IMG/VR virus record: IMGVR_UViG_2859810971_000008
Location: 1-35,162 of that record
Strand: one strand, 5' to 3'
DNA from: a virus
Taxonomy: Duplodnaviria; Heunggongvirae; Uroviricota; Caudoviricetes
Length of the DNA: 35,162 bases
The notes beneath the pieces were generated by a model. It was not told the DNA's origin. It did not search any database and saw nothing but the letters and a program-made list of their open reading frames with translations. Every line of letters starts with the position of its first letter. Within the stretch, counting starts at the first letter, position 1. The position numbers and the translations under genes were made by a program. Below are positions 1 through 34,075 of the stretch, in pieces.

Positions 1-1158
1 ATGCTCACCGTTAAGCAGATTGAAGCAGCAAAGCCGAAAGAAAAACCATACCGCCTTCTCGATGGTAATGGCCTGTACCTTTATGTCCCTGTATCAGGGA
101 AAAAGGTATGGCAGCTTCGCTACAAGATTGACGGTAAGGAAAAAATACTGACCGTAGGAAAATATCCACTAATGACTTTGCAGGAGACAAGAGATAAAGC
201 ATGGACCGCGAGGAAAGACATCTCGGTTGGCATCGATCCGGTAAAGGCGAAAAAGGCTTCGTCTAACAACAATTCCTTTAGTGCGATTTACAAGGAATGG
301 TACGAGCACAAGAAGCAAGTATGGTCAGTAGGGTATGCGACTGAACTTGCAAAAATGTTTGATGACGACATTTTACCTATCATCGGCGGCCTTGAAATTC
401 AGGATATTGAGCCGATGCAACTGCTGGAAGTAATCCGCAGATTTGAAGATCGCGGTGCAATGGAGCGAGCCAACAAAGCACGCAGAAGATGCGGAGAGGT
501 TTTCCGTTACGCTATTGTCACCGGAAGGGCTAAATATAACCCGGCACCTGACCTTGCTGACGCCATGAAGGGATACCGCAAGAAGAACTTCCCGTTTCTT
601 CCTGCAGACCAGATCCCGGCATTCAACAAAGCACTGGCAACATTTTCAGGAAGTATCGTATCGCTCATTGCGACCAAAGTTTTACGCTACACAGCCCTAA
701 GAACGAAAGAGCTTCGTTCCATGCAATGGAAGAACGTCGATTTTGAAAACAGGATTATCACTATCGACGCCAGTGTGATGAAGGGACGCAAGATTCATGT
801 TGTCCCGATGTCGGACCAGGTGGTTGAACTTCTCACTACGCTAATCTCCATCACCAAACCAGTATCAGAGTTTGTTTTTGCCGGGCGTAACGATAAGAAG
901 AAGCCAATCTGCGAGAACGCGGTATTGCTTGTGATCAAACAAATCGGCTATGAGGGTCTGGAAAGCGGTCACGGATTCAGGCATGAATTCAGCACGATTA
1001 TGAACGAGCACGAATGGCCCGCTGATGCTATTGAAGTGCAACTGGCACATGCCAACGGCGGATCTGTGCGCGGTATTTACAACCATGCTCAGTATCTCGA
1101 TAAGCGCAGAGAAATGATGCAGTGGTGGGCGGATTGGCTTGATGAAAAGGTGCTGTAA
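1..1158 (+). CDS. intS: Tyrosine recombinase/integrase, P4 (IntS)-type
   Basis: 385 aa ORF starting at nt 1; N-terminus MLTVKQIEAAKPKEKPYRLLDGNGLYLYV typical of P4-family integrases, C-terminal catalytic region with conserved R..H..R..Y spacing (HGFRHEF...VRGIYNHAQY). Recalled as near-identical to KplE1/CPS-53 IntS, unverified. Confidence 0.9.
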   Translation: MLTVKQIEAAKPKEKPYRLLDGNGLYLYVPVSGKKVWQLRYKIDGKEKILTVGKYPLMTLQETRDKAWTARKDISVGIDPVKAKKASSNNNSFSAIYKEWYEHKKQVWSVGYATELAKMFDDDILPIIGGLEIQDIEPMQLLEVIRRFEDRGAMERANKARRRCGEVFRYAIVTGRAKYNPAPDLADAMKGYRKKNFPFLPADQIPAFNKALATFSGSIVSLIATKVLRYTALRTKELRSMQWKNVDFENRIITIDASVMKGRKIHVVPMSDQVVELLTTLISITKPVSEFVFAGRNDKKKPICENAVLLVIKQIGYEGLESGHGFRHEFSTIMNEHEWPADAIEVQLAHANGGSVRGIYNHAQYLDKRREMMQWWADWLDEKVL

Positions 1159-1514
1159 TCCTCATATCCAACCTAAGAGATATGCACAATTTTGTGAATA
1201 AGATATTGAGAATTAGCGAAAAGTTTTATTTTGCGTATCATCAATTCAGAATACAAAGTTACATGCTAATGTTCTGCATTGGTATCTTTTGCTTATCCAT
1301 GTCTACATTATCGCCAAAAAAATAGGTTTTGTCTATCAATTATTTGAATTACTTCCATGAAATTATAACGCACTTGTAATTTTTGATTATTTTTACCTCT
1401 CAAGTGTTTTGTTTCTTCTATCTCTTTGTATTTTTAGCGAAAGTATGCCATATTGCATTCTAATATAACGTGGCGTTGTTTCTGTTTAATGATTTAAATA
1501 GTTCAACATAATAT

Positions 1515-2690
1515 TTGCTAACAAATTATATCCAAGCAAATCATATGATATTATCATTACAATATATTAGAGGAATAGCATCATTACTTGTTGTTTTATT
1601 CCACTTCAGATTCTTGCTAAATGAGCACTACTCTCAGAAAGATTTGGGTGACCTATTATTTGGGAATGGGCTGTCTGGAGTTGATATATTCTTCATATTA
1701 AGTGGATTTATCATCGTATACTCAACAAGAAAGAAGGAAGTTAATGATACTTTCTCATTCTCAATTAGAAGAATATTTAGAATATACCCATTACTAATCA
1801 CATGCTGTTGCATGTATTACATAATAAACACTCAATTTCTAACCTATGCTACAGTTGAAAACTTTAGAACCTTGCTTATTTCCATCATTCCATTAAATAT
1901 AAACTGGAATGAAGGTGCTCCATTCTTTGCCTATAATCTTTTGTACCCGGCCTGGACGATAACATATGAAATTGGTTTCTATGTTTTTTTCGGGGTATCA
2001 ATGTCTATTTCGCATAAATACAGAACAATTATCTGTTCTGTTTTTATAATCATGGTGGTCTCATTTACACAATACTATGTGAATGGAAATATATCATTTT
2101 CAGGTGATGTTAGTGCAGGGTTATTTACAGATAACTGGTTATTAGGATATACAAATGTTATTACATCTCCAATGATGTATGAATTCGTTATTGGGATGTT
2201 TCTTTCTGAAATATTTATAAACATCAACGAAAGCAAAAGTATTAAAAGGATACTTTCAAAGTATTCGCTTCAAATACTATGGATTTCATGTGGTATATCC
2301 ATAATATTATTCATTATCCAGCGACCTTATGGGCATGGATTGAATGGATTTGGGACTATGGCGATGATACTTATTGCATCATCATTAGTATATGAATACT
2401 GCAATATAACACCCAAAATAAAAATATTTAATTTCCTTGGTGAAATATCATATTCTTTATATCTAATTCACGCCGTGATACTTGCTTTGTTCTTCTATTA
2501 TAAGGCAGACCTTGCTGAAATTGGCATAACTGGTGGATTTTCTGTGTTTTTTTCCTTGGTTATTATCTCAATAACTGCATCATATCCAATATATATTCTC
2601 ATTGAAAAACCAATGATAAATATAGGCAAACGTTTAATTGACAAGAGAAATAAGAGCATTAATAAAAAAGAAACCGAAATAACAGCGTAA
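1515..2690 (+). CDS. Acyltransferase family 3 (AT3) integral membrane protein; putative O-antigen/LPS O-acetyltransferase (lysogenic conversion). Alternative start at 1545
   Basis: 391 aa, very hydrophobic with multiple predicted TM segments; N-terminal motif YIRGIASLLVVLFHF and SGVDIFFILSGFII typical of the Oac/OafA AT3 family; strongly AT-rich codon usage unlike the phage structural genes. Confidence 0.75.
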   Translation: MLTNYIQANHMILSLQYIRGIASLLVVLFHFRFLLNEHYSQKDLGDLLFGNGLSGVDIFFILSGFIIVYSTRKKEVNDTFSFSIRRIFRIYPLLITCCCMYYIINTQFLTYATVENFRTLLISIIPLNINWNEGAPFFAYNLLYPAWTITYEIGFYVFFGVSMSISHKYRTIICSVFIIMVVSFTQYYVNGNISFSGDVSAGLFTDNWLLGYTNVITSPMMYEFVIGMFLSEIFININESKSIKRILSKYSLQILWISCGISIILFIIQRPYGHGLNGFGTMAMILIASSLVYEYCNITPKIKIFNFLGEISYSLYLIHAVILALFFYYKADLAEIGITGGFSVFFSLVIISITASYPIYILIEKPMINIGKRLIDKRNKSINKKETEITA

Positions 2691-2704
2691 TAATGACAAA
2701 GTTA

Positions 2705-2729
2705 GTGCCGGATACCCCGGCACTTTTTA
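2705..2729 (+). terminator. Rho-independent terminator after the first AT3 gene
   Basis: GTGCCGG-ATACC-CCGGCAC hairpin followed by TTTTT immediately after the stop at 2688-2690. Confidence 0.5.
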
Positions 2730-4102
2730 ATCAATTTCGTAAGTGACAGTGATTATCACCTCTGCATTATTACCCAAAACATTTTGATATATATTCATAT
2801 TACCTGATAATGTAGTTGCTCCAGTAAGAGTTATATAACTACTATTTGCATCAACCCTTGGAAGTAAAGCGGTAACTGCTGTTGTTAAATTATTATAGTA
2901 GCCTGTACTTCCAACATATGCAGCTTTATTGCTTGATACATATGGTAACCCTCCAATTCTGAAACCATCTCCTGACCCAATTAAAGTTATACCAAGGTGA
3001 CATATTGCTGTTATGATATTGCCACTCCTGACATAATTTCCTTTCTGCTGATAATATGTGGCATTACCACCTACAGTCGGAATCCAAACTCCAGTTTCTA
3101 TATCACCACATGACCAGTCTTCTGCTGTTGTTAGTTTTCCAGTAACAATAAATTTACTTCCACCACCAGAATTATAAGGAACAAAAATTGGATTTATTCT
3201 TGCATAAGTGTTACCGGTCTGCTCATTAAGATCATTTCTATCAATAAGAACTTGACCATTTTCGAAGTTTGAAATCTGGCAGTCTGTTACACTCCAGTCT
3301 CTTAACTTCACATCAGCATCCATGACACCAATAAGCTTACCAGCATTACCAATTTTTTCTTTATGCATATTTACATACACATTTCTTACCGTAACAGACT
3401 GAGGGAACAGATAATTAGCAGGATTAGTTTTATCACTTAAAATAGATATTACCCAAGGTCTGTATTGAGTACTTACTTCACAATAAAATCCATCAATAAG
3501 CGTTCCAGATGCCGCTGGTCCAAGTAGTATTCCACCTGTAGAGTGATGCGCACTACCTCCAATTACTCTCCCCTTAACGCAGTTAATATAGGCAAAATAT
3601 CCTAAATCTTGATTGTCATAGGCTGACATAGCACAGTCTCTAACTGTTACTCGAGAATTTCCTCCGTCATAAGCTGAGCCATCAGTTTTCTTACCAACTA
3701 TTGATATAAAGTTACCAATAGCAACTCGACTATAAAAAGTTTTTTATAACACCCCTCAATTAAAATATCCCAGTTTTCAAACTGAGCATATATATCATAA
3801 GAGCTGGCATTCCCATAATCTATGAAATCACAACATCTTATTTTCGGCGTATAAACGGCACTTTTTATCTTTATACCACCTAATGCTCTCTCCCCACCTG
3901 TGAATCTAATGCCAGTAACGGTGTAATCGCCTTGATAGAAATTATCTGCGGTAGGATTATTTTCGTCAGAATCATCACCCAATATAATAGCAAATTCACT
4001 CCCTGAATAATTAATTGTCGCCCCCTTATTTGAATATATAGTTACAGGTCTTATAAACTCCAAAGAATTACTTATTAGATACTCTCCATAAGGAAAAAAA
4101 TC
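2727..4102 (-). pseudogene. Tailspike/tail-fibre-like receptor-binding protein remnant (beta-helix-like composition), frameshifted and lacking a start codon
   Basis: Two ORF fragments (3698..4063 and 2727..3629) in different frames; the lower frame stays open upstream to 3743, so the break is in the A/T run at 3735-3746. The upper fragment has only a TTG start and is open upstream to a stop at 4103-4105. Gly/Asn/Thr/Ser-rich repetitive sequence typical of tailspike beta-helices. AT-rich. Confidence 0.4.
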
Positions 4103-4455
4103 TCAACTGGTGGTGAGTACTTTGGTCTGGAGTTTACGTAATTCATAATATTGATTACACCAACATCATAGATAATCGCCACCTTCTGGCGAGGAGCTCC
4201 TGATGCAATTAATCGCCAGGCCTACGCCCATTATTCAGGGGTAAATTTTGGACGGAGCCCCCAATTCCATCCTCAATTCTCCCTCGCACTGAGGAGTAGT
4301 AAGTGCAATTATTTAAAAAATCGCAAACAGAATATTATCATTTATTCTTGCATTCTGTTAATTAAAACCACACATAAAAACGTTGATACTTGATAAGTAA
4401 GTAGAGTATTATTAATGGTTTTAATAACGAACCTTTTAATCATGAGAAGCCTCAA

Positions 4456-5481
4456 ATGACTAGTACCAATAACATAACAAGAAAAAAAATGGATGGAGTA
4501 ACAATCTTAAGATTTATAGCTGCTTTTTATGTGTTTATTTTTCACATTAACATGAGAGTCCCCGTTAATTTTGGAGAGCTTATTAATAAAACCATTAGCA
4601 ATGGCGTCATTGGCATGAGTATTTTCTTCATGCTTTCTGGTTTTGTTTTGACTTATAATTACTATGGTTCCTTGTCAAACAATTACTTCAGGAAGCGAAT
4701 AGCAAGAATATTTCCAGCCTATTTATTTTGTGGGCTTTTAACCCTCCCATTTTTGTTATCCAGCGATGCAAGCTTTTTAAAAATGATTGCAAGCATATTC
4801 TTGTTTGTTACTGGAATGCAATCATGGATTTATCAGACCTTCGATTTTTGGAATTTTAGCGGTACCTGGTCAATATCAGTGGAATTGTTTTTTTATGCCC
4901 TGTTTCCATTTTTGATAAAAAACATCAACAAAAACAATGTAATTTACGTTTTACTTTTTTCATATTTATCTTCAGCATTATTAATCCCATTATCTGATAT
5001 AATTCAGGGACCTGTAGTTTGGTCCGTATATTACGCAACTCCAATATACAGGTTACCAGAATTTGTGGTGGGCGTCTGTATCGCAATACTTTTTTTAAAT
5101 GGCTATCGTGTTAACCATTATACATGGCTATTAAGCATTTTATTATTTCTGTATGCTACCACCCAGCAAAACAATAACTCCATGGGGGTGAACTATCTCA
5201 CAATTCCTGCGATATCAATTATGTTATTGCACCTGGCAAAAATCAACATCAAAAACAATATTGCAAACAGAGCGATCATTTACTTTGGAGATATAAGTTA
5301 TTCGTTTTATTTGATGCAATTACCTATATTATATTACCTGGATCATAATAAAAACTCATTTATTCTTAACTATGGTCTTTTTAGCTGGCTTGTACTTTTT
5401 GTTATTAATACTGCAATGGCATCATTATCTTATCACTTTCTGGAGAAGAACGATAAAATCAGAAAAATAATCACATCCTGA
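4456..5481 (+). CDS. Acyltransferase family 3 (AT3) integral membrane protein; putative O-antigen O-acetyltransferase (Oac-like)
   Basis: 341 aa; motifs RFIAAFYVFIFH, FFMLSGFVLTY, multiple TM segments; size and motifs resemble phage-borne Oac-type O-acetylases; AT-rich. Confidence 0.8.
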   Translation: MTSTNNITRKKMDGVTILRFIAAFYVFIFHINMRVPVNFGELINKTISNGVIGMSIFFMLSGFVLTYNYYGSLSNNYFRKRIARIFPAYLFCGLLTLPFLLSSDASFLKMIASIFLFVTGMQSWIYQTFDFWNFSGTWSISVELFFYALFPFLIKNINKNNVIYVLLFSYLSSALLIPLSDIIQGPVVWSVYYATPIYRLPEFVVGVCIAILFLNGYRVNHYTWLLSILLFLYATTQQNNNSMGVNYLTIPAISIMLLHLAKINIKNNIANRAIIYFGDISYSFYLMQLPILYYLDHNKNSFILNYGLFSWLVLFVINTAMASLSYHFLEKNDKIRKIITS

Positions 5482-5482
5482 T

Positions 5483-5508
5483 TTATTAGGGGGACCTCCC
5501 CCTAATAA
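5483..5508. terminator. Perfect inverted-repeat hairpin between convergent genes (possible bidirectional terminator)
   Basis: TTATTAGGGGG-ACC-TCCCCCTAATAA: 11-bp perfect stem between the AT3 stop (5481) and the tfa stop (5523). No clear U-tract on either side. Confidence 0.35.
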
Positions 5509-5522
5509 TACACCACATAATT

Positions 5523-5933
5523 TCAACGTATTATCTCTGGTCTTTCAGGCCAGGTTATTTCTGGCACTAAAGATAAATCCACTGACATTAAACTATTAAC
5601 ATATTCCTTCCATAATAAAAGATTGCCCTTGTTATTTTCACTTATAATACCGAGTAACAAATCTGACTGCCAGTTCATAATTAAACTATTAGCACTATCC
5701 AGCAGACACTGTCTTTCATTCTCTGCCTCACGAAGTAATTCATCATGTGTTTTTGGCGGCTGCGTAGGTGACGAAAGCTTTCCCTTATCATAGAACCAAC
5801 CAATTCTTACATTATCGGATACAGGTATAACTAACGCATTAGTTGGTTGCCAGGCACTCTCACCATCCCATACAGCAATATTGGTAACAACACCATTTTC
5901 AATAACGGCATAGTTCATCATGCATACTCCCAA
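5523..5933 (-). CDS. Tail fibre assembly protein (Tfa family)
   Basis: 136 aa; N-terminus [19 protein letters not shown]... characteristic of lambda/Mu-type tail fibre assembly chaperones; directly downstream of the tail fibre gene. Confidence 0.8.
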   Translation of the reverse strand: MGVCMMNYAVIENGVVTNIAVWDGESAWQPTNALVIPVSDNVRIGWFYDKGKLSSPTQPPKTHDELLREAENERQCLLDSANSLIMNWQSDLLLGIISENNKGNLLLWKEYVNSLMSVDLSLVPEITWPERPEIIR

Positions 5934-6933
5934 ATGATTGCAATACCAGCCATTCCGCTACCTCCGGCACGCTGCTGCGTCGCTCCACCGTAAACACAGG
6001 CGCCACCGCCGCCGCCGCCATGGCCATTAGCATTAATACCTTCGCCTACAATGGCTTGCGACCCAGCCCCCGCACCAAGGATTGAATCGCCTCCAGGCCC
6101 ACCAATCGCCAGACTGCCAGAAAACCGAATGCCTGGTGAGTTATAACCACTTCCGGATCCGATAATATTGGCACCTGTAAATCCCGGTTCAGTATATGCC
6201 CCATACGGACCAACAACCCCAGGAGCAGTGCCTTCAGCAAGAACATTCCCACCAAGACCACCTTTGGCAATTATGGTATTGCCGAAAGAGGTTGCTCCCC
6301 CGGGAGCACCAACCGACGCACTTGCACCAGTGCCACCATATCCTATTGTCACAGTAGTTACGGTTGGATTATCCACGCGAGCTTTAACATACTCCCCGGA
6401 CATCCCCCGCCACCACAAGCAGCATTATTGGGATAACCGACCTGACAACCACCACCGGCCCCACCACCACCAACAATTTCAACAATAATAAATCTTGTGC
6501 CTTTTGTCGGAGTGTATGTACCTGAGCTTTTAAACACCTGACACTGTATAAGCCTCCCGGAGCCATCTCCCAAACCAAGATTTTCGAGAGCCGTTTTCAC
6601 CGTGCCGTCCGATTTAATATCACCAAACGGATTCTTGCGGCTCAGGTATTCAACAGCAAACCCCGATCCCAGCAATTCAACAAAACCGGGCAGATCACCA
6701 TTATCAAGCACATCCCGTTGCGTTTTATCACTTACAAACTGGGCCAGAGCTGCAGCAATAAAGCTGGCCTGCCGAATAACCTTATTGACTTGCGCACTGG
6801 AGGCTTTCCCTGCTGTAAATCCGGATAAAAGCGCGGGCAACGCTTCCCATTCCTCCTGCGATATAACATTGGCATTTCGATCCGTTGCAAACGCTTTAAA
6901 GTCATTTTTCGCCATCAGAGTAATACTCCCCAT
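5918..6933 (-). CDS. Tail fibre protein, glycine-rich; interrupted by a 1-nt frameshift (two ORF fragments 6358..6933 and 5918..6418)
   Basis: N-terminal fragment [33 protein letters not shown]... is a conserved tail-fibre N-terminus; the C-terminal fragment is Gly-rich. The frames join if the 5-C run at about 6404-6408 were 6 nt. Confidence 0.7.
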
Positions 6934-7595
6934 GCTCCTACATCAAAACCACTGATGAATTCGTTATCCATATCAAAACCAAAAAATTTTGAGCCTTCCG
7001 ATGGGGTTTCCACCGAAGGTGTTTCAATGCCACCCGCCCATACCCCGGCAGCTTTTACTGTGAGATACCCCTGTTTAATTGCCGCAATTAACTCACGCGA
7101 TACATCTGAAATATCAGTATCAGGAAAGACCCAGACCGATATCGTCATGTCCTGGTTATCGACTATCTGCATTCGCAGCCCGGATCCTGCTGTTGCAGCG
7201 TCAAGAATTGCCGGAAGCGAATCATTCCGTCCATCCCAGTTATTAATCGCAATCTTCGCTTTAAGAATGACACGATAAGTTTCATCGCTGAGGTACATGT
7301 ATCCGGAATCAGGATCGTATGGTCCCTGCCATACCCCCTGATCATATCCAAGCCCGTCGGTATCCCAGCTGAAATAGACACCTGAGATAGGCTGGCTGAC
7401 AACACGGCTACGTCCGATCCACAATCCCAGAATGTCAAGTTGCACACCAACCGCAGAGTCAATATCAAATGCAGTAATCAGCCCTCTGGTGGCAGCCGCA
7501 ACATCAATAAGCGGCCGGGTCATCAGATCAACATGCGCAAGAAATTTAGGTTTGGTGGCGTGGTAGTTCGTGATTAGTTCGGTGTATTTGCTCAT
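6915..7595 (-). CDS. Tail/baseplate protein (P2 gpI / Mu gp48-like, DUF2313-type)
   Basis: 226 aa ORF between baseplate J and the tail fibre gene, the conserved position of gpI/gp48-like proteins. Family assignment by position and recalled sequence character. Confidence 0.55.
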
Positions 7596-7605
7596 GACTC
7601 CACCG

Positions 7606-8790
7606 TTATAACGATATTTTCCGGGGTACAGGACGCAGATTCGTTGTATCTGATATCAATGTTTGATGACGACAAAGCCCCGGGGATTTCCCAATCGTCA
7701 GTTCCTGAATATCGTAATAGCGTGCATTCCCGCCACTCACCACGCCAAGATTCGCCGGTGAGTAAATGCGACTTAAAAGGACCGAATCACCAATCGTCAA
7801 ACTATTGATATAGTCGGAAATAGCCTGCTGGATCTGCTGCCCTATCTGTGAGGTATAACCCGTAAAAACTTTTAATTTAATCCGGGCATAAACAGGCACA
7901 TCACTGGAACGCGAGAATTTGATTACATGGGGATTGCCGTATTTATCCGGAACCGTAACGGATGTTGTACCGTGAGTGGCTGTCCCCTGGCCTTTATTCC
8001 CTCTGATAGCCTGAGCAATATCCGTCACATCACCGCCATCCACAATTACAGCAACAGAGTGTGGCGGTAACCCGTTACCGTCCTCCGAACCAGTATCGTT
8101 TTCATAGAGTTTGTGGCGGGTTACACCGGTAACATTAGAAACAGCACCATCCAGTGCTTCAAATGGGGTTATTGATGGCAACGCAACACTTTGCGACTGG
8201 CGGATACGTAACTCAGCATCAGTTTCTGCCGGAGAGCCAACAGTAGCCGCAGCAGGATTAGTTACCGAAACCCAGCCACGGGTTGGCGTATTAATTTCAG
8301 TGATAGTTCCAGCCAGCGCCGCCACTGCACCACTGACGGAACATGTTGCGGTCGCCATCACTGTACCATCCACGCCGACCACCACTGAAGCAGGCAAACG
8401 CCATATCACATTATTACTGTCTTTCACGCTGCCATTAATGATGGTTGTTCCGGCAGTTCCTGTAAGAAGCAAATCAACCGTAGAGTTCGTCGCGCCTTTA
8501 CGTGAAATACCATTTATTTTCACGTTACTGGTCAGTGCAGCCCCATAGCCGGTTGCCGGTGAAAAACAGTTGTAGACAGTTATCGCCATATTATTGGCAT
8601 CATGAATCGCCAGCGCCATCAGAGCCACCATCTGGCCGTCTTTGCTGTCCGGTTCGAGGTAGGCATCACTGCCATAAATCTGCTGAAAATAGCTAATCAG
8701 GGTGCTGAGTATCGTCTGATAATCAGGCGCACTGATCCCCTCCGCGGTTACCTTTGCAGATAAACCGAGAGAATCAAGGTTCAGAGCCAT
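7606..8790 (-). CDS. Baseplate J-like protein (P2 gpJ / Mu gp47 family)
   Basis: 394 aa; position between the gp46/W-like and gpI-like genes; size and sequence character typical of baseplate J proteins. Confidence 0.8.
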   Translation of the reverse strand: MALNLDSLGLSAKVTAEGISAPDYQTILSTLISYFQQIYGSDAYLEPDSKDGQMVALMALAIHDANNMAITVYNCFSPATGYGAALTSNVKINGISRKGATNSTVDLLLTGTAGTTIINGSVKDSNNVIWRLPASVVVGVDGTVMATATCSVSGAVAALAGTITEINTPTRGWVSVTNPAAATVGSPAETDAELRIRQSQSVALPSITPFEALDGAVSNVTGVTRHKLYENDTGSEDGNGLPPHSVAVIVDGGDVTDIAQAIRGNKGQGTATHGTTSVTVPDKYGNPHVIKFSRSSDVPVYARIKLKVFTGYTSQIGQQIQQAISDYINSLTIGDSVLLSRIYSPANLGVVSGGNARYYDIQELTIGKSPGLCRHQTLISDTTNLRPVPRKISL

Positions 8791-9143
8791 TACGCCTCCG
8801 ATGTAACAGTCGTTATTCCATAGAGAGTGTCGATTTCAGCGGAAAACATGACACGTCGGGTCGTGGTATCCACCGTCGTATTGAAAGAGAGGATTGATTT
8901 AACGCCCTGCGTTTCGAGGATGCGCTTACGGATCGCCAGGTTGTAAGTTTCTGGTTTTTGCCTGCCCAGCACGGACTGGATCCACGGTGTTCCCTCTGTG
9001 GTATCAAGAAACCATTGCCCATACCACAATTCGAATCGCGTTTTCACAGCCTGCGCCACGGCCTCAGGCGAGTTAATCAGCCAGGTGTCATCACCGCTGC
9101 CAAAGGTGTAATCGCCATCGGCGTCTTCACGTCTGTATCGCAT
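8790..9143 (-). CDS. Baseplate wedge protein (GP46 / gpW-like)
   Basis: 117 aa ORF immediately upstream of baseplate J with overlapping stop/start, the standard gpW/gp46 slot. Confidence 0.6.
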   Translation of the reverse strand: MRYRREDADGDYTFGSGDDTWLINSPEAVAQAVKTRFELWYGQWFLDTTEGTPWIQSVLGRQKPETYNLAIRKRILETQGVKSILSFNTTVDTTTRRVMFSAEIDTLYGITTVTSEA

Positions 9144-9894
9144 CAGTTTACCCCGTCGGTACTGCTTCCACCACGCTGAACACCACCATGAGTGTGTGTA
9201 TCATCGATTGGCTTGCCATTAGCCTTCACGCTCCCCAAAAACTCAACAGCACCAGTGATTTTTGAAGCCACACCAGAAACCACAGACCCCACCATGCCCC
9301 CCATCCAGGTTAACAGGCCATGAATGGTTACTTTCTCAGAAAAATCAGCCAGAGGGGCAACCACATCAAGCCCCCGGGAGCAACAATTTTAATTTTCCTG
9401 GTATCAGGATTAAGCTCAAAATAGGTGCTGCCGTCATCACTACGCAACTGTGTGGCACTGGTATTAATACCGCTAATCTTCCTTGCCTGCGACTGGGGAC
9501 CGACAATACAAAACGCATCCGATAAATCATGCATTCTGTCATCGACCGGCTCCTGTATCCCGCCACTCTGCCACCAGAAATCAATACAACGATCGGCAAA
9601 AATCACCAAACATTCATCACCGGCTTTTACCGGAAAAGTCAACGTGCAGCCTCCGCCGCGCGGGAATACCACTGGCACATCCACCAGCAATGGGTAATTT
9701 TTGGTAATGCGGTTGCCGTCGTTATCAATTTCAACGTAACGGATAGCAGGCTGTACAACCGCCGTCACCGCATCAGGAGCGAATGACTGAACAATGCCAG
9801 GCAAGGCGACACGGATCTGGTTCTTTGTTGTTTCCCGTTCAGATTTGAATGTTTCAGCAAGGTCGCCGCTGCGGGTCTGGTCAGATACTGCCAT
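9143..9894 (-). CDS. Baseplate assembly/spike protein V (Mu gp45-like); interrupted by a 1-nt frameshift (fragments 9328..9894 and 9143..9364)
   Basis: 188 aa N-terminal fragment plus 73 aa C-terminal fragment in another frame; the frames join (…KIVAPGGLDVVAPLADFSEK…) if the 5-C run at about 9371-9375 were 6 nt. GGAG Shine-Dalgarno ahead of the ATG at 9894. Confidence 0.6.
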
Positions 9895-9912
9895 TTAGTA
9901 GGCTCCAGAAAG

Positions 9913-9936
9913 CAAAAAACCCGCCGGGTGGCGGGT
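9913..9936 (-). terminator. Rho-independent terminator after the moron gene
   Basis: Minus-strand ACCCGCC-ACCC-GGCGGGT hairpin followed by TTTTTTGCTTT, 18 nt after the stop of the 79-aa gene. Confidence 0.6.
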
Positions 9937-9953
9937 TCATTATTGAAGTTTCA

Positions 9954-32918: not shown

Positions 32919-33737
32919 TTAAGCAGCCATCTGATGATATTTTTCCCTGAAGGCTGCCGGGGAGATATTCCCCAGACGAGAGTGACGACGCTGACGATTG
33001 TAGAAAATCTCAATGTATTCCCGTATTACTGAGATGGCCTCATCCCGGCTCTTAAAACGATAGTGGCTCAGGCTTTCATTTTTCAGCGTTCCCCAGAAGC
33101 TTTCCATCGGAGCGTTGTCGTAACAGTTACCTTTACGCGACATTGATGTTTTCAGACCAAACTGCTCCTGTATGACCCGGTAATCGTATGCGCAGTACTG
33201 TGAACCTCGATCAGAGTGGTGGATTAGCCCGGCAGGTGGGCGCTGGCTCCTGAGCGCCATAAACAGGGCTTTACCTGTCAGCTCTTTTGTCATGCGCTCT
33301 CCCATGGCGTAGCCGACAATTTCGCACGTATAAACATCTTTGATGCCAGCGAGGTACAACCATCCCTCCTGTGTGGCAACATACGTCAGGTCCGCCACCC
33401 AGACCTGATTTGGTGCTGTAGGAGCGAACGTCTGGTTCAGCAGATTTGGCGCAACTGGCAGATTGTGGTTCGGGTTCGTAGTCGCTCTGAACTTGCGTTT
33501 CTGCTTACAGCGTAGCCTCAGCTCCTTACGAAGACGTGCCAGTCGGTCACGACCAACGATGATGCCATTCTCTGCCAGCTCCGTCTGGAGCCGCCGGGTT
33601 CCATATGTTTCGCGAGTGCGGATATGTGCCACCTTAATCTCCAGTTTTAGCCGCTCATCACTTTGTTTTCTGTCTGAGGGTTCATGCTGTACCCAGTTGT
33701 AATAACCGCTCCTGGATACACCAAATACCTGACACAT
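32919..33737 (-). CDS. IS600-like transposase OrfB
   Basis: 272 aa IS3-family DDE transposase (…HSDRGSQYCAYDYR…YDNAPMESFWGTLK…). Confidence 0.8.
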   Translation of the reverse strand: MCQVFGVSRSGYYNWVQHEPSDRKQSDERLKLEIKVAHIRTRETYGTRRLQTELAENGIIVGRDRLARLRKELRLRCKQKRKFRATTNPNHNLPVAPNLLNQTFAPTAPNQVWVADLTYVATQEGWLYLAGIKDVYTCEIVGYAMGERMTKELTGKALFMALRSQRPPAGLIHHSDRGSQYCAYDYRVIQEQFGLKTSMSRKGNCYDNAPMESFWGTLKNESLSHYRFKSRDEAISVIREYIEIFYNRQRRHSRLGNISPAAFREKYHQMAA

Positions 33738-33772
33738 CGCTTCAATGGGAAATTGTTGTCGCCATTGTTCGA

Positions 33773-34075
33773 TTAACGCGTATTTTTCAGCGACTCCTGT
33801 GCAAAATACGCTGTTGCTTTTTTTAATATATCGCGCTCAAGGCGAGCTTCATTTAACGCCTTACGCAGTTGCAGAATTTCAGATTCCAGTTCAGCCACCG
33901 TGCGGGAACCAGGAGTACCGAGCCCTTTTCTGGCGGCGGTAACCCATTGTCCTAAAGTGCCTTCAGGAAGGGATAATCGGGAAGCGCCTTCACTGATCGA
34001 AAGTTGATTTTCAAGAACCGTTCTGACAGCTTCGGCTTTGAACTCTTTAGAGTAACGTTGGGTTTTTCTGCTCAT
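33773..34075 (-). CDS. IS600-like transposase OrfA
   Basis: 100 aa; MSRKTQRYSKEFKAEAVRTVLENQLSISEGASRLSLPEGTLGQWV... HTH plus leucine zipper typical of IS3 OrfA. Confidence 0.8.
   Translation of the reverse strand: MSRKTQRYSKEFKAEAVRTVLENQLSISEGASRLSLPEGTLGQWVTAARKGLGTPGSRTVAELESEILQLRKALNEARLERDILKKATAYFAQESLKNTR

Follow-up and report, generated by a model that had tools for sequence, protein, structure and literature searches.

An apparently split tail fibre gene in a defective Shigella flexneri prophage very probably reflects an error in the deposited assembly

Background

Is the tail fibre gene of a Shigella flexneri prophage really broken in two, or has one base been lost from the sequence that was deposited? 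The question is raised by a window of 35,162 nucleotides (the whole stretch of DNA that was analysed), which is 100% identical to the S. flexneri record CP026810.1, a single 4.53-Mb contig. The split is present in the deposited sequence. The preliminary description of the locus had left three options open, i.e. a sequencing undercall, genuine inactivation of the gene, or re-initiation of translation at an internal ATG.

In this study, we compared the window with intact homologues, with an E. coli prophage of 96% identity (L004) and 20-odd further loci, and with other assemblies of the same prophage. Moreover, intact and truncated protein products were looked up by exact sequence in a collection of approximately 15 billion proteins.

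Results

The 5' part of the fibre gene (P0016) is located at 6358-6915 on the minus strand and encodes 185 aa. Residues 1-171 are true fibre sequence, comprising the N-terminal baseplate-attachment region and the start of a Gly_rich_2 domain; the last 14 residues are out-of-frame read-through. The 3' part (P0001; 5918-6403, minus strand, 161 aa from an internal ATG) carries the remainder of the glycine-rich distal domain and has an alternative TTG start (5918-6418, minus). The frame breaks at 6404-6408, a run of C5 on the plus strand corresponding to G5 on the coding minus strand, which reads GCT TGT GGT GGC GGGGG ATG TCC with the ATG directly after the run. Addition of one C to the run in silico results in a single ORF of 332 aa, exactly protein P0094. 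The coordinates and the repaired ORF agree with the preliminary description, according to which the two frames would fuse cleanly with one more base. Once the missing base is allowed for, the two halves do not differ from intact P0094, and neither shows secondary decay. Concerning the gene span, which had been given as 5918-6933, the split holds and the start at 6933 probably does not. The N-terminal ORF at 6358-6933 (minus) is 191 aa long from its first ATG; gene callers start at the ATG at 6915 (MAKNDF...), the likely start codon, which yields the 185 aa. The exact protein look-up returned no match for the 191-aa form, because gene callers use the ATG at 6915.

As predicted from sequence, what underlies the split is an unremarkable mosaic gene for a StfP-like side tail fibre, carried by a defective lambdoid/myovirus-type S. 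flexneri prophage. In the repaired protein, residues 132-328 match Pfam Gly_rich_2 (PF21722) with 42.3 bits, above the gathering cut-off of 24.3, and there are also matches to the PHROG profiles phrog_11303, phrog_863, phrog_1396 and phrog_6202, all of the tail category; NCBIfam contains no model for the fibre. The frame break follows residue 171 and thereby lies within Gly_rich_2, and phrog_863 spans residues 1-331 without interruption, the halves stopping and resuming at profile positions 448 and 450. Gene order is baseplate J, DUF2612, fibre, Caudo_TAP. Directly upstream, the baseplate wedge protein (DUF2612/Phage_Wedge1; 6915-7595, minus, 226 aa) is intact, and the start of the tail fibre assembly chaperone gene (Caudo_TAP; 5523-5921, minus, 132 aa) overlaps the fibre stop codon (ATGA). 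Over its first ~200 nt, the fibre gene matches the fibre of sister prophages that share the baseplate module; over the distal ~740 nt, it is 97% identical in DNA sequence to E. coli genes annotated as stfP (e14 type).

Further observations concern the architecture of this module. In sister prophages L010, L015 and L018, a Pin/Gin-type resolvase-family invertase gene is found downstream of the DUF2612 gene, and the Caudo_TAP and fibre-tip genes of sister prophages are oppositely oriented, forming invertible fibre segments. Unlike in several sister prophages, there is no Pin-type invertase and no inverted alternative fibre segment at the fibre position of the window. Inside the fibre gene, at ~6432 (minus), contigs of four S. 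flexneri assemblies (L006-L009) all begin at one base, which precedes the internal ATG by 29-30 nt. Fibre homology in E. coli B strains begins within 3 nt of the same position, adjoining a gene annotated as Acb1-family anti-CBASS. This suggests that ~6432 is a recombination junction of the mosaic fibre and that those genomes contain a second copy of the distal module.

Intact homologues carry G6 and encode proteins of 369 aa (L001, L003), 316 aa (L002), 338 aa (P0004) and 332 aa (P0094). The intact E. coli fibre ORFs (L001 3036-4127, L003 3036-4127, L002 2776-3726) read GGC GGGGGG ATG. When an 81-nt probe across the tract was searched in 5,426 complete E. coli genomes, the tract was found in 69 of them, with no exact match to the G5 version; among the matches listed, which represent 40 of the 69 genomes, all span one extra base, i.e. 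G6 with an open frame. The comparison of tract length in homologous prophages, proposed in the preliminary description, accordingly yields G6 and a single ORF in both E. coli and S. flexneri relatives. Since intact homologues have G6 at this very spot, the two ORFs in the window are not a chance alignment. Nor are the halves two natural genes, as would be expected if homologues were split at the same point: every homologue is one ORF, and Gly_rich_2 and phrog_863 run across the break. RefSeq/PGAP annotation of the E. coli loci might be mistaken for a conserved split, as it shows a 'partial, missing C-terminus' pseudogene next to a 'glycine-rich domain-containing protein', or gives no annotation for the distal part. 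We rejected this reading, as the ORFs there are intact (369 aa, 316 aa). Many database copies of this fibre family are labelled 'carbohydrate kinase', a misleading annotation.

The same comparisons bear on translational explanations. The distal part might be re-initiated at the ATG after the run, or the ribosome might slip by -1 on C GGG GGA in a programmed manner and so give a low level of full-length fibre. An ATG does directly follow the run, and judging from the letters a -1 slip after GGC GGG would yield exactly the intact protein. Yet the two-frame layout is conserved in no relative, and the break interrupts one folded domain and continuous profile matches. Furthermore, C GGG GGA is not a canonical X XXY YYZ heptamer, as its first position misfits, inspection reveals no spaced Shine-Dalgarno sequence before the internal ATG, and a distal piece devoid of the N-terminal anchor presumably could not attach to the baseplate. 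We regard recoding or re-initiation as exceedingly improbable.

Independent assemblies of the same prophage were informative. L021, the Logan short-read assembly of run ERR200328, provides a 17,561-nt contig covering window positions 1091-18647. L021, which may be another isolate, shows 0 mismatches and exactly 4 gaps to the window in 17.5 kb. At each gap the window is one base short in a G/C run (2710-2711, 6404-6408, 7678-7681 and 9371-9375), and three of the four gaps break genes, namely those for the fibre, baseplate J and the spike. L021 encodes the intact forms of all three (332 aa, 399 aa and 250 aa, respectively). Two NCBI draft and two further Logan S. flexneri assemblies (L006-L009), which may be other isolates, contain the same prophage at the same chromosomal site, and in all four the tract is G6 and the fibre frame open. 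Six C and an intact gene, the finding that the preliminary description had expected from an artefact, are thus present, at the level of assemblies, in independent short-read data. Over 10.5 kb, CP026810.1 differs from the assemblies L006 and L007 by 4 SNPs as well as 3 one-base deletions, the latter all in G/C runs. Outside the window, a chromosomal BrkB-family (yihY-like) gene of 290 aa in L006 and L007 is split into 108 + 174 aa in CP026810.1 by a loss from G4 to G3 (L005 19510-20381). This error mode thus extends beyond the prophage.

Within the window, six sites are one base shorter than in the other loci compared; two of them are non-coding and no site is uniquely longer. The GG run at 2710-2711, located in a non-coding hairpin between genes, is GGG in L021 and, overall, in three short-read S. 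flexneri assemblies; as it is non-coding, no selection for gene inactivation can be invoked there. The C4 run at 7678-7681 in baseplate J is C5 in 13 other loci including L021, and its loss shifts the final 30 codons, resulting in 394 aa as compared to 399 aa elsewhere. The C5 run at 9371-9375 is C6 in L021 and five other loci and truncates the baseplate spike to 188 aa (250 aa elsewhere). The second non-coding site is an intergenic G4 run at 18842-18845, part of a hairpin (GGCCCC..GGGGCC) that follows the major capsid gene. Twelve other loci have G5 here and one has G6; G4 was found only in CP026810.1. Likewise, the G4 run at 21943-21946, five bases long (GGGGG or GGGGT) in 15 other loci, is G4 only in CP026810.1, where the loss splits a Mu F-like minor head protein (244 aa elsewhere). 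The frameshifts in baseplate J, spike and minor head protein are the same artefact as that in the fibre gene. With L021 taken as the truth over 17.5 kb, the losses affect 2 of 3 six-base, 1 of 17 five-base, 0 of 57 four-base and 1 of 232 three-base G/C runs. Against L021, no A/T run was affected in the 17.5 kb, including 21 runs of six or more bases.

At 21510-21513, close to the 5' end of the DUF2213 (Pa193_gp24-like) head gene, the C4/C5 difference represents natural variation, so that indels in the window cannot all be taken as errors. We considered reading every indel relative to L004 as an error and rejected this, as C4 at this site is shared with three metagenome scaffolds. C4, carried for example by scaffolds L027 and L029, goes with a 381-aa and not a 406-aa product.

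In the exact look-ups, 15 contigs from S. flexneri and S. boydii encode the repaired fibre P0094. The truncated fibre P0016, the spike of 188 aa and the baseplate J of 394 aa were found on one contig each, that of CP026810.1. A lesion of another kind served as positive control. The small terminase gene (terS) has an in-frame stop at 25608-25610 on the minus strand (…AAYVL, stop, RLTEID…), by which it is split into 71 + 105 aa, and the 105-aa product (P0049) recurs in independent NCBI, Logan and ENA assemblies. This nonsense lesion looks real, and because it recurs across assemblies, the look-up tells a real lesion from a private one. Two further products were considered as possible independent lesions at the fibre site. 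P0018 is the sole other product with the same out-of-frame tail, and its contig (L025) the sole other G5 copy. In its 2.1 kb, L025 has six deletions when compared with L021, and five of these fall in G/C runs; with so many, L025 is itself error-ridden, and we rejected it as an independent G5 allele. P0017 (176 aa, L030) derives from a metagenome contig with 2.96x coverage and a cluster of errors right after the G run, and is uninformative as to a natural lesion.

These data also address phase variation, in which the length of a poly-G contingency tract would switch the fibre on and off. The break does lie in a homopolymer of a gene for a receptor-binding protein, a class that is sometimes phase-variable. 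The tract has only 5 or 6 bases, as compared to usually 8 or more in contingency loci, and G6 is invariant in the independent assemblies examined, G5 occurring only in two error-prone records. Moreover, the prophage could not normally express its late genes, the antiterminator Q being truncated. The preliminary description had judged phase variation unlikely for so short a tract, and G6 being fixed in these assemblies bears this out; we assign it a negligible probability.

The state of the prophage is relevant to a genuine lesion. Of antiterminator Q, a remnant is left (28757-28954, the C-terminal ~66 aa only). An IS3-family element (28958-30162; orfA 29824-30162, orfB 28958-29797) lies between this remnant and gene O, and the P, ren and nin genes of sister prophages are missing from the window (region 28757-30834). 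Because of the IS3 insertion, the Q remnant and the missing P, ren and nin genes, the prophage is defective whatever the state of the fibre. A second IS3-family element is located at 32919-34075.

The opposite end of the window contains other cargo. Two genes with an Acyl_transf_3 domain (1515-2690 and 4456-5481, plus strand) lie between the integrase gene (1-1158) and the tail fibre chaperone gene, and an unannotated ORF of 300 aa (2727-3629) lies between the two. They are candidate O-antigen acetyltransferase morons, i.e. genes of lysogenic conversion. Strains B, BL21 and C of E. coli carry the acyltransferase block with 99.1% identity.

Discussion

The split of the fibre gene is very probably an error in the deposited CP026810.1 assembly caused by homopolymer undercalling, and not a property of the bacterium; as a biological feature, the split is almost certainly not real. 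The true gene would be one ORF of 999 nt at window 5918-6915 (minus) with G6, encoding a side tail fibre of 332 aa. The consensus would have lost one base of the G6 run, and likewise one base at several other G/C runs, which would produce the apparent frameshifts. Consensus calling on long-read-type data would account for such losses. Of the three options of the preliminary description, the undercall is backed by G6 in independent assemblies; inactivation is disfavoured by the private nature of the allele, and re-initiation by the lack of a conserved two-frame layout.

An error is favoured because natural divergence does not account for four one-base losses in 17.5 kb without a single substitution, and because the losses are all in G/C runs and strike non-coding DNA, a chromosomal housekeeping gene and phage genes alike. 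The main alternative is that slipped-strand loss of one G from G6 inactivated the fibre in this isolate, as part of the decay of a defective prophage. The prior for real frameshifts is raised here, since the prophage is genuinely decaying: the terS stop is common to independent assemblies, IS elements have inserted, Q is truncated, and P and the nin region are gone. Furthermore, G/C runs are natural indel hot spots and Shigella genomes are rich in pseudogenes, which counts for a genuine frameshift. A genuine frameshift, however, needs at least four independent one-base deletions with zero substitutions relative to L021, and further such losses besides, among which are losses in two non-coding hairpins and in a chromosomal gene. 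The changes are losses throughout, without any gain, and spare the 21 A/T runs that are six bases or longer. The G5 allele occurs in no other assembly except the error-ridden contig L025. An inherited pseudogene is hard to reconcile with P0016 on one contig as compared to P0094 on 15, given that the terS product recurs, and a genuine pseudogene with two fibre halves that are free of secondary decay. We consider a genuine strain-specific lesion unlikely. Quite unlikely, too, is that the isolate carries many real G/C-run losses, e.g. through a lineage-specific defect of replication or repair whose products would be nearly all deletions in G/C runs; on this view, a single burst would have truly inactivated the genes for the fibre, baseplate J, the spike and the minor head protein.

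A point against an assembly error is the density of approximately 1 error per 5 kb, more than would be expected of a PacBio assembly that has been well polished. The CP0268xx Shigella genomes are, we assume, a PacBio set of historical strains; Kim et al. reportedly sequenced 59 historical Shigella strains by PacBio in 2018. In literature text, no mention of CP026810, GCA_002949455 or ERR200328 was found.

The value of the finding lies solely in quality control, as it concerns a public complete genome with homopolymer undercalls at approximately 1 per 5 kb in the region examined. The apparent pseudogenes of CP026810.1 (fibre, baseplate J, spike, minor head, BrkB-family) should not be read as Shigella decay; because the record has homopolymer undercalls, they are not evidence of gene decay, phase variation or recoding. 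Exact look-up of intact versus truncated products in independent short-read assemblies offers a cheap check that does not require raw reads.

Among known systems, the pattern most resembles the indel errors of long-read assemblies. Such errors are known to fragment genes (PMC12007338). As in that error mode, the one-base losses are found only in G/C runs, affect coding and non-coding, prophage and chromosomal DNA of one record alike, and do not appear in short-read assemblies of that DNA; the density differs in being on the high side. With the programmed -1 frameshift of lambda G/GT, the locus shares two overlapping frames in a tail gene that are joinable by a -1 slip. Here, in contrast, the layout is not conserved in homologues, a canonical slippery heptamer is lacking, and a folded domain is cut by the break. 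Poly-G contingency loci of Neisseria, Haemophilus and Campylobacter, and of some phage receptor-binding genes, likewise have a G run of which one length is out of frame; the tract in the window differs from these in being too short and in showing no length polymorphism among independent assemblies. As to the gene itself, the closest relatives are the e14 StfP and other PF21722 fibres, with which it shares the C-terminal ~240 residues (97% DNA identity to stfP), a Gly_rich_2 match above the Pfam threshold and an adjacent Caudo_TAP chaperone gene. It differs from e14 StfP in its N-terminal ~90 residues, which come from the DUF2612/Phage_Wedge1 module and are not of the YmfQ type. It differs from StfP-like fibres in general in being broken in the window, whereas homologues and the short-read assemblies of the same prophage have a single ORF.
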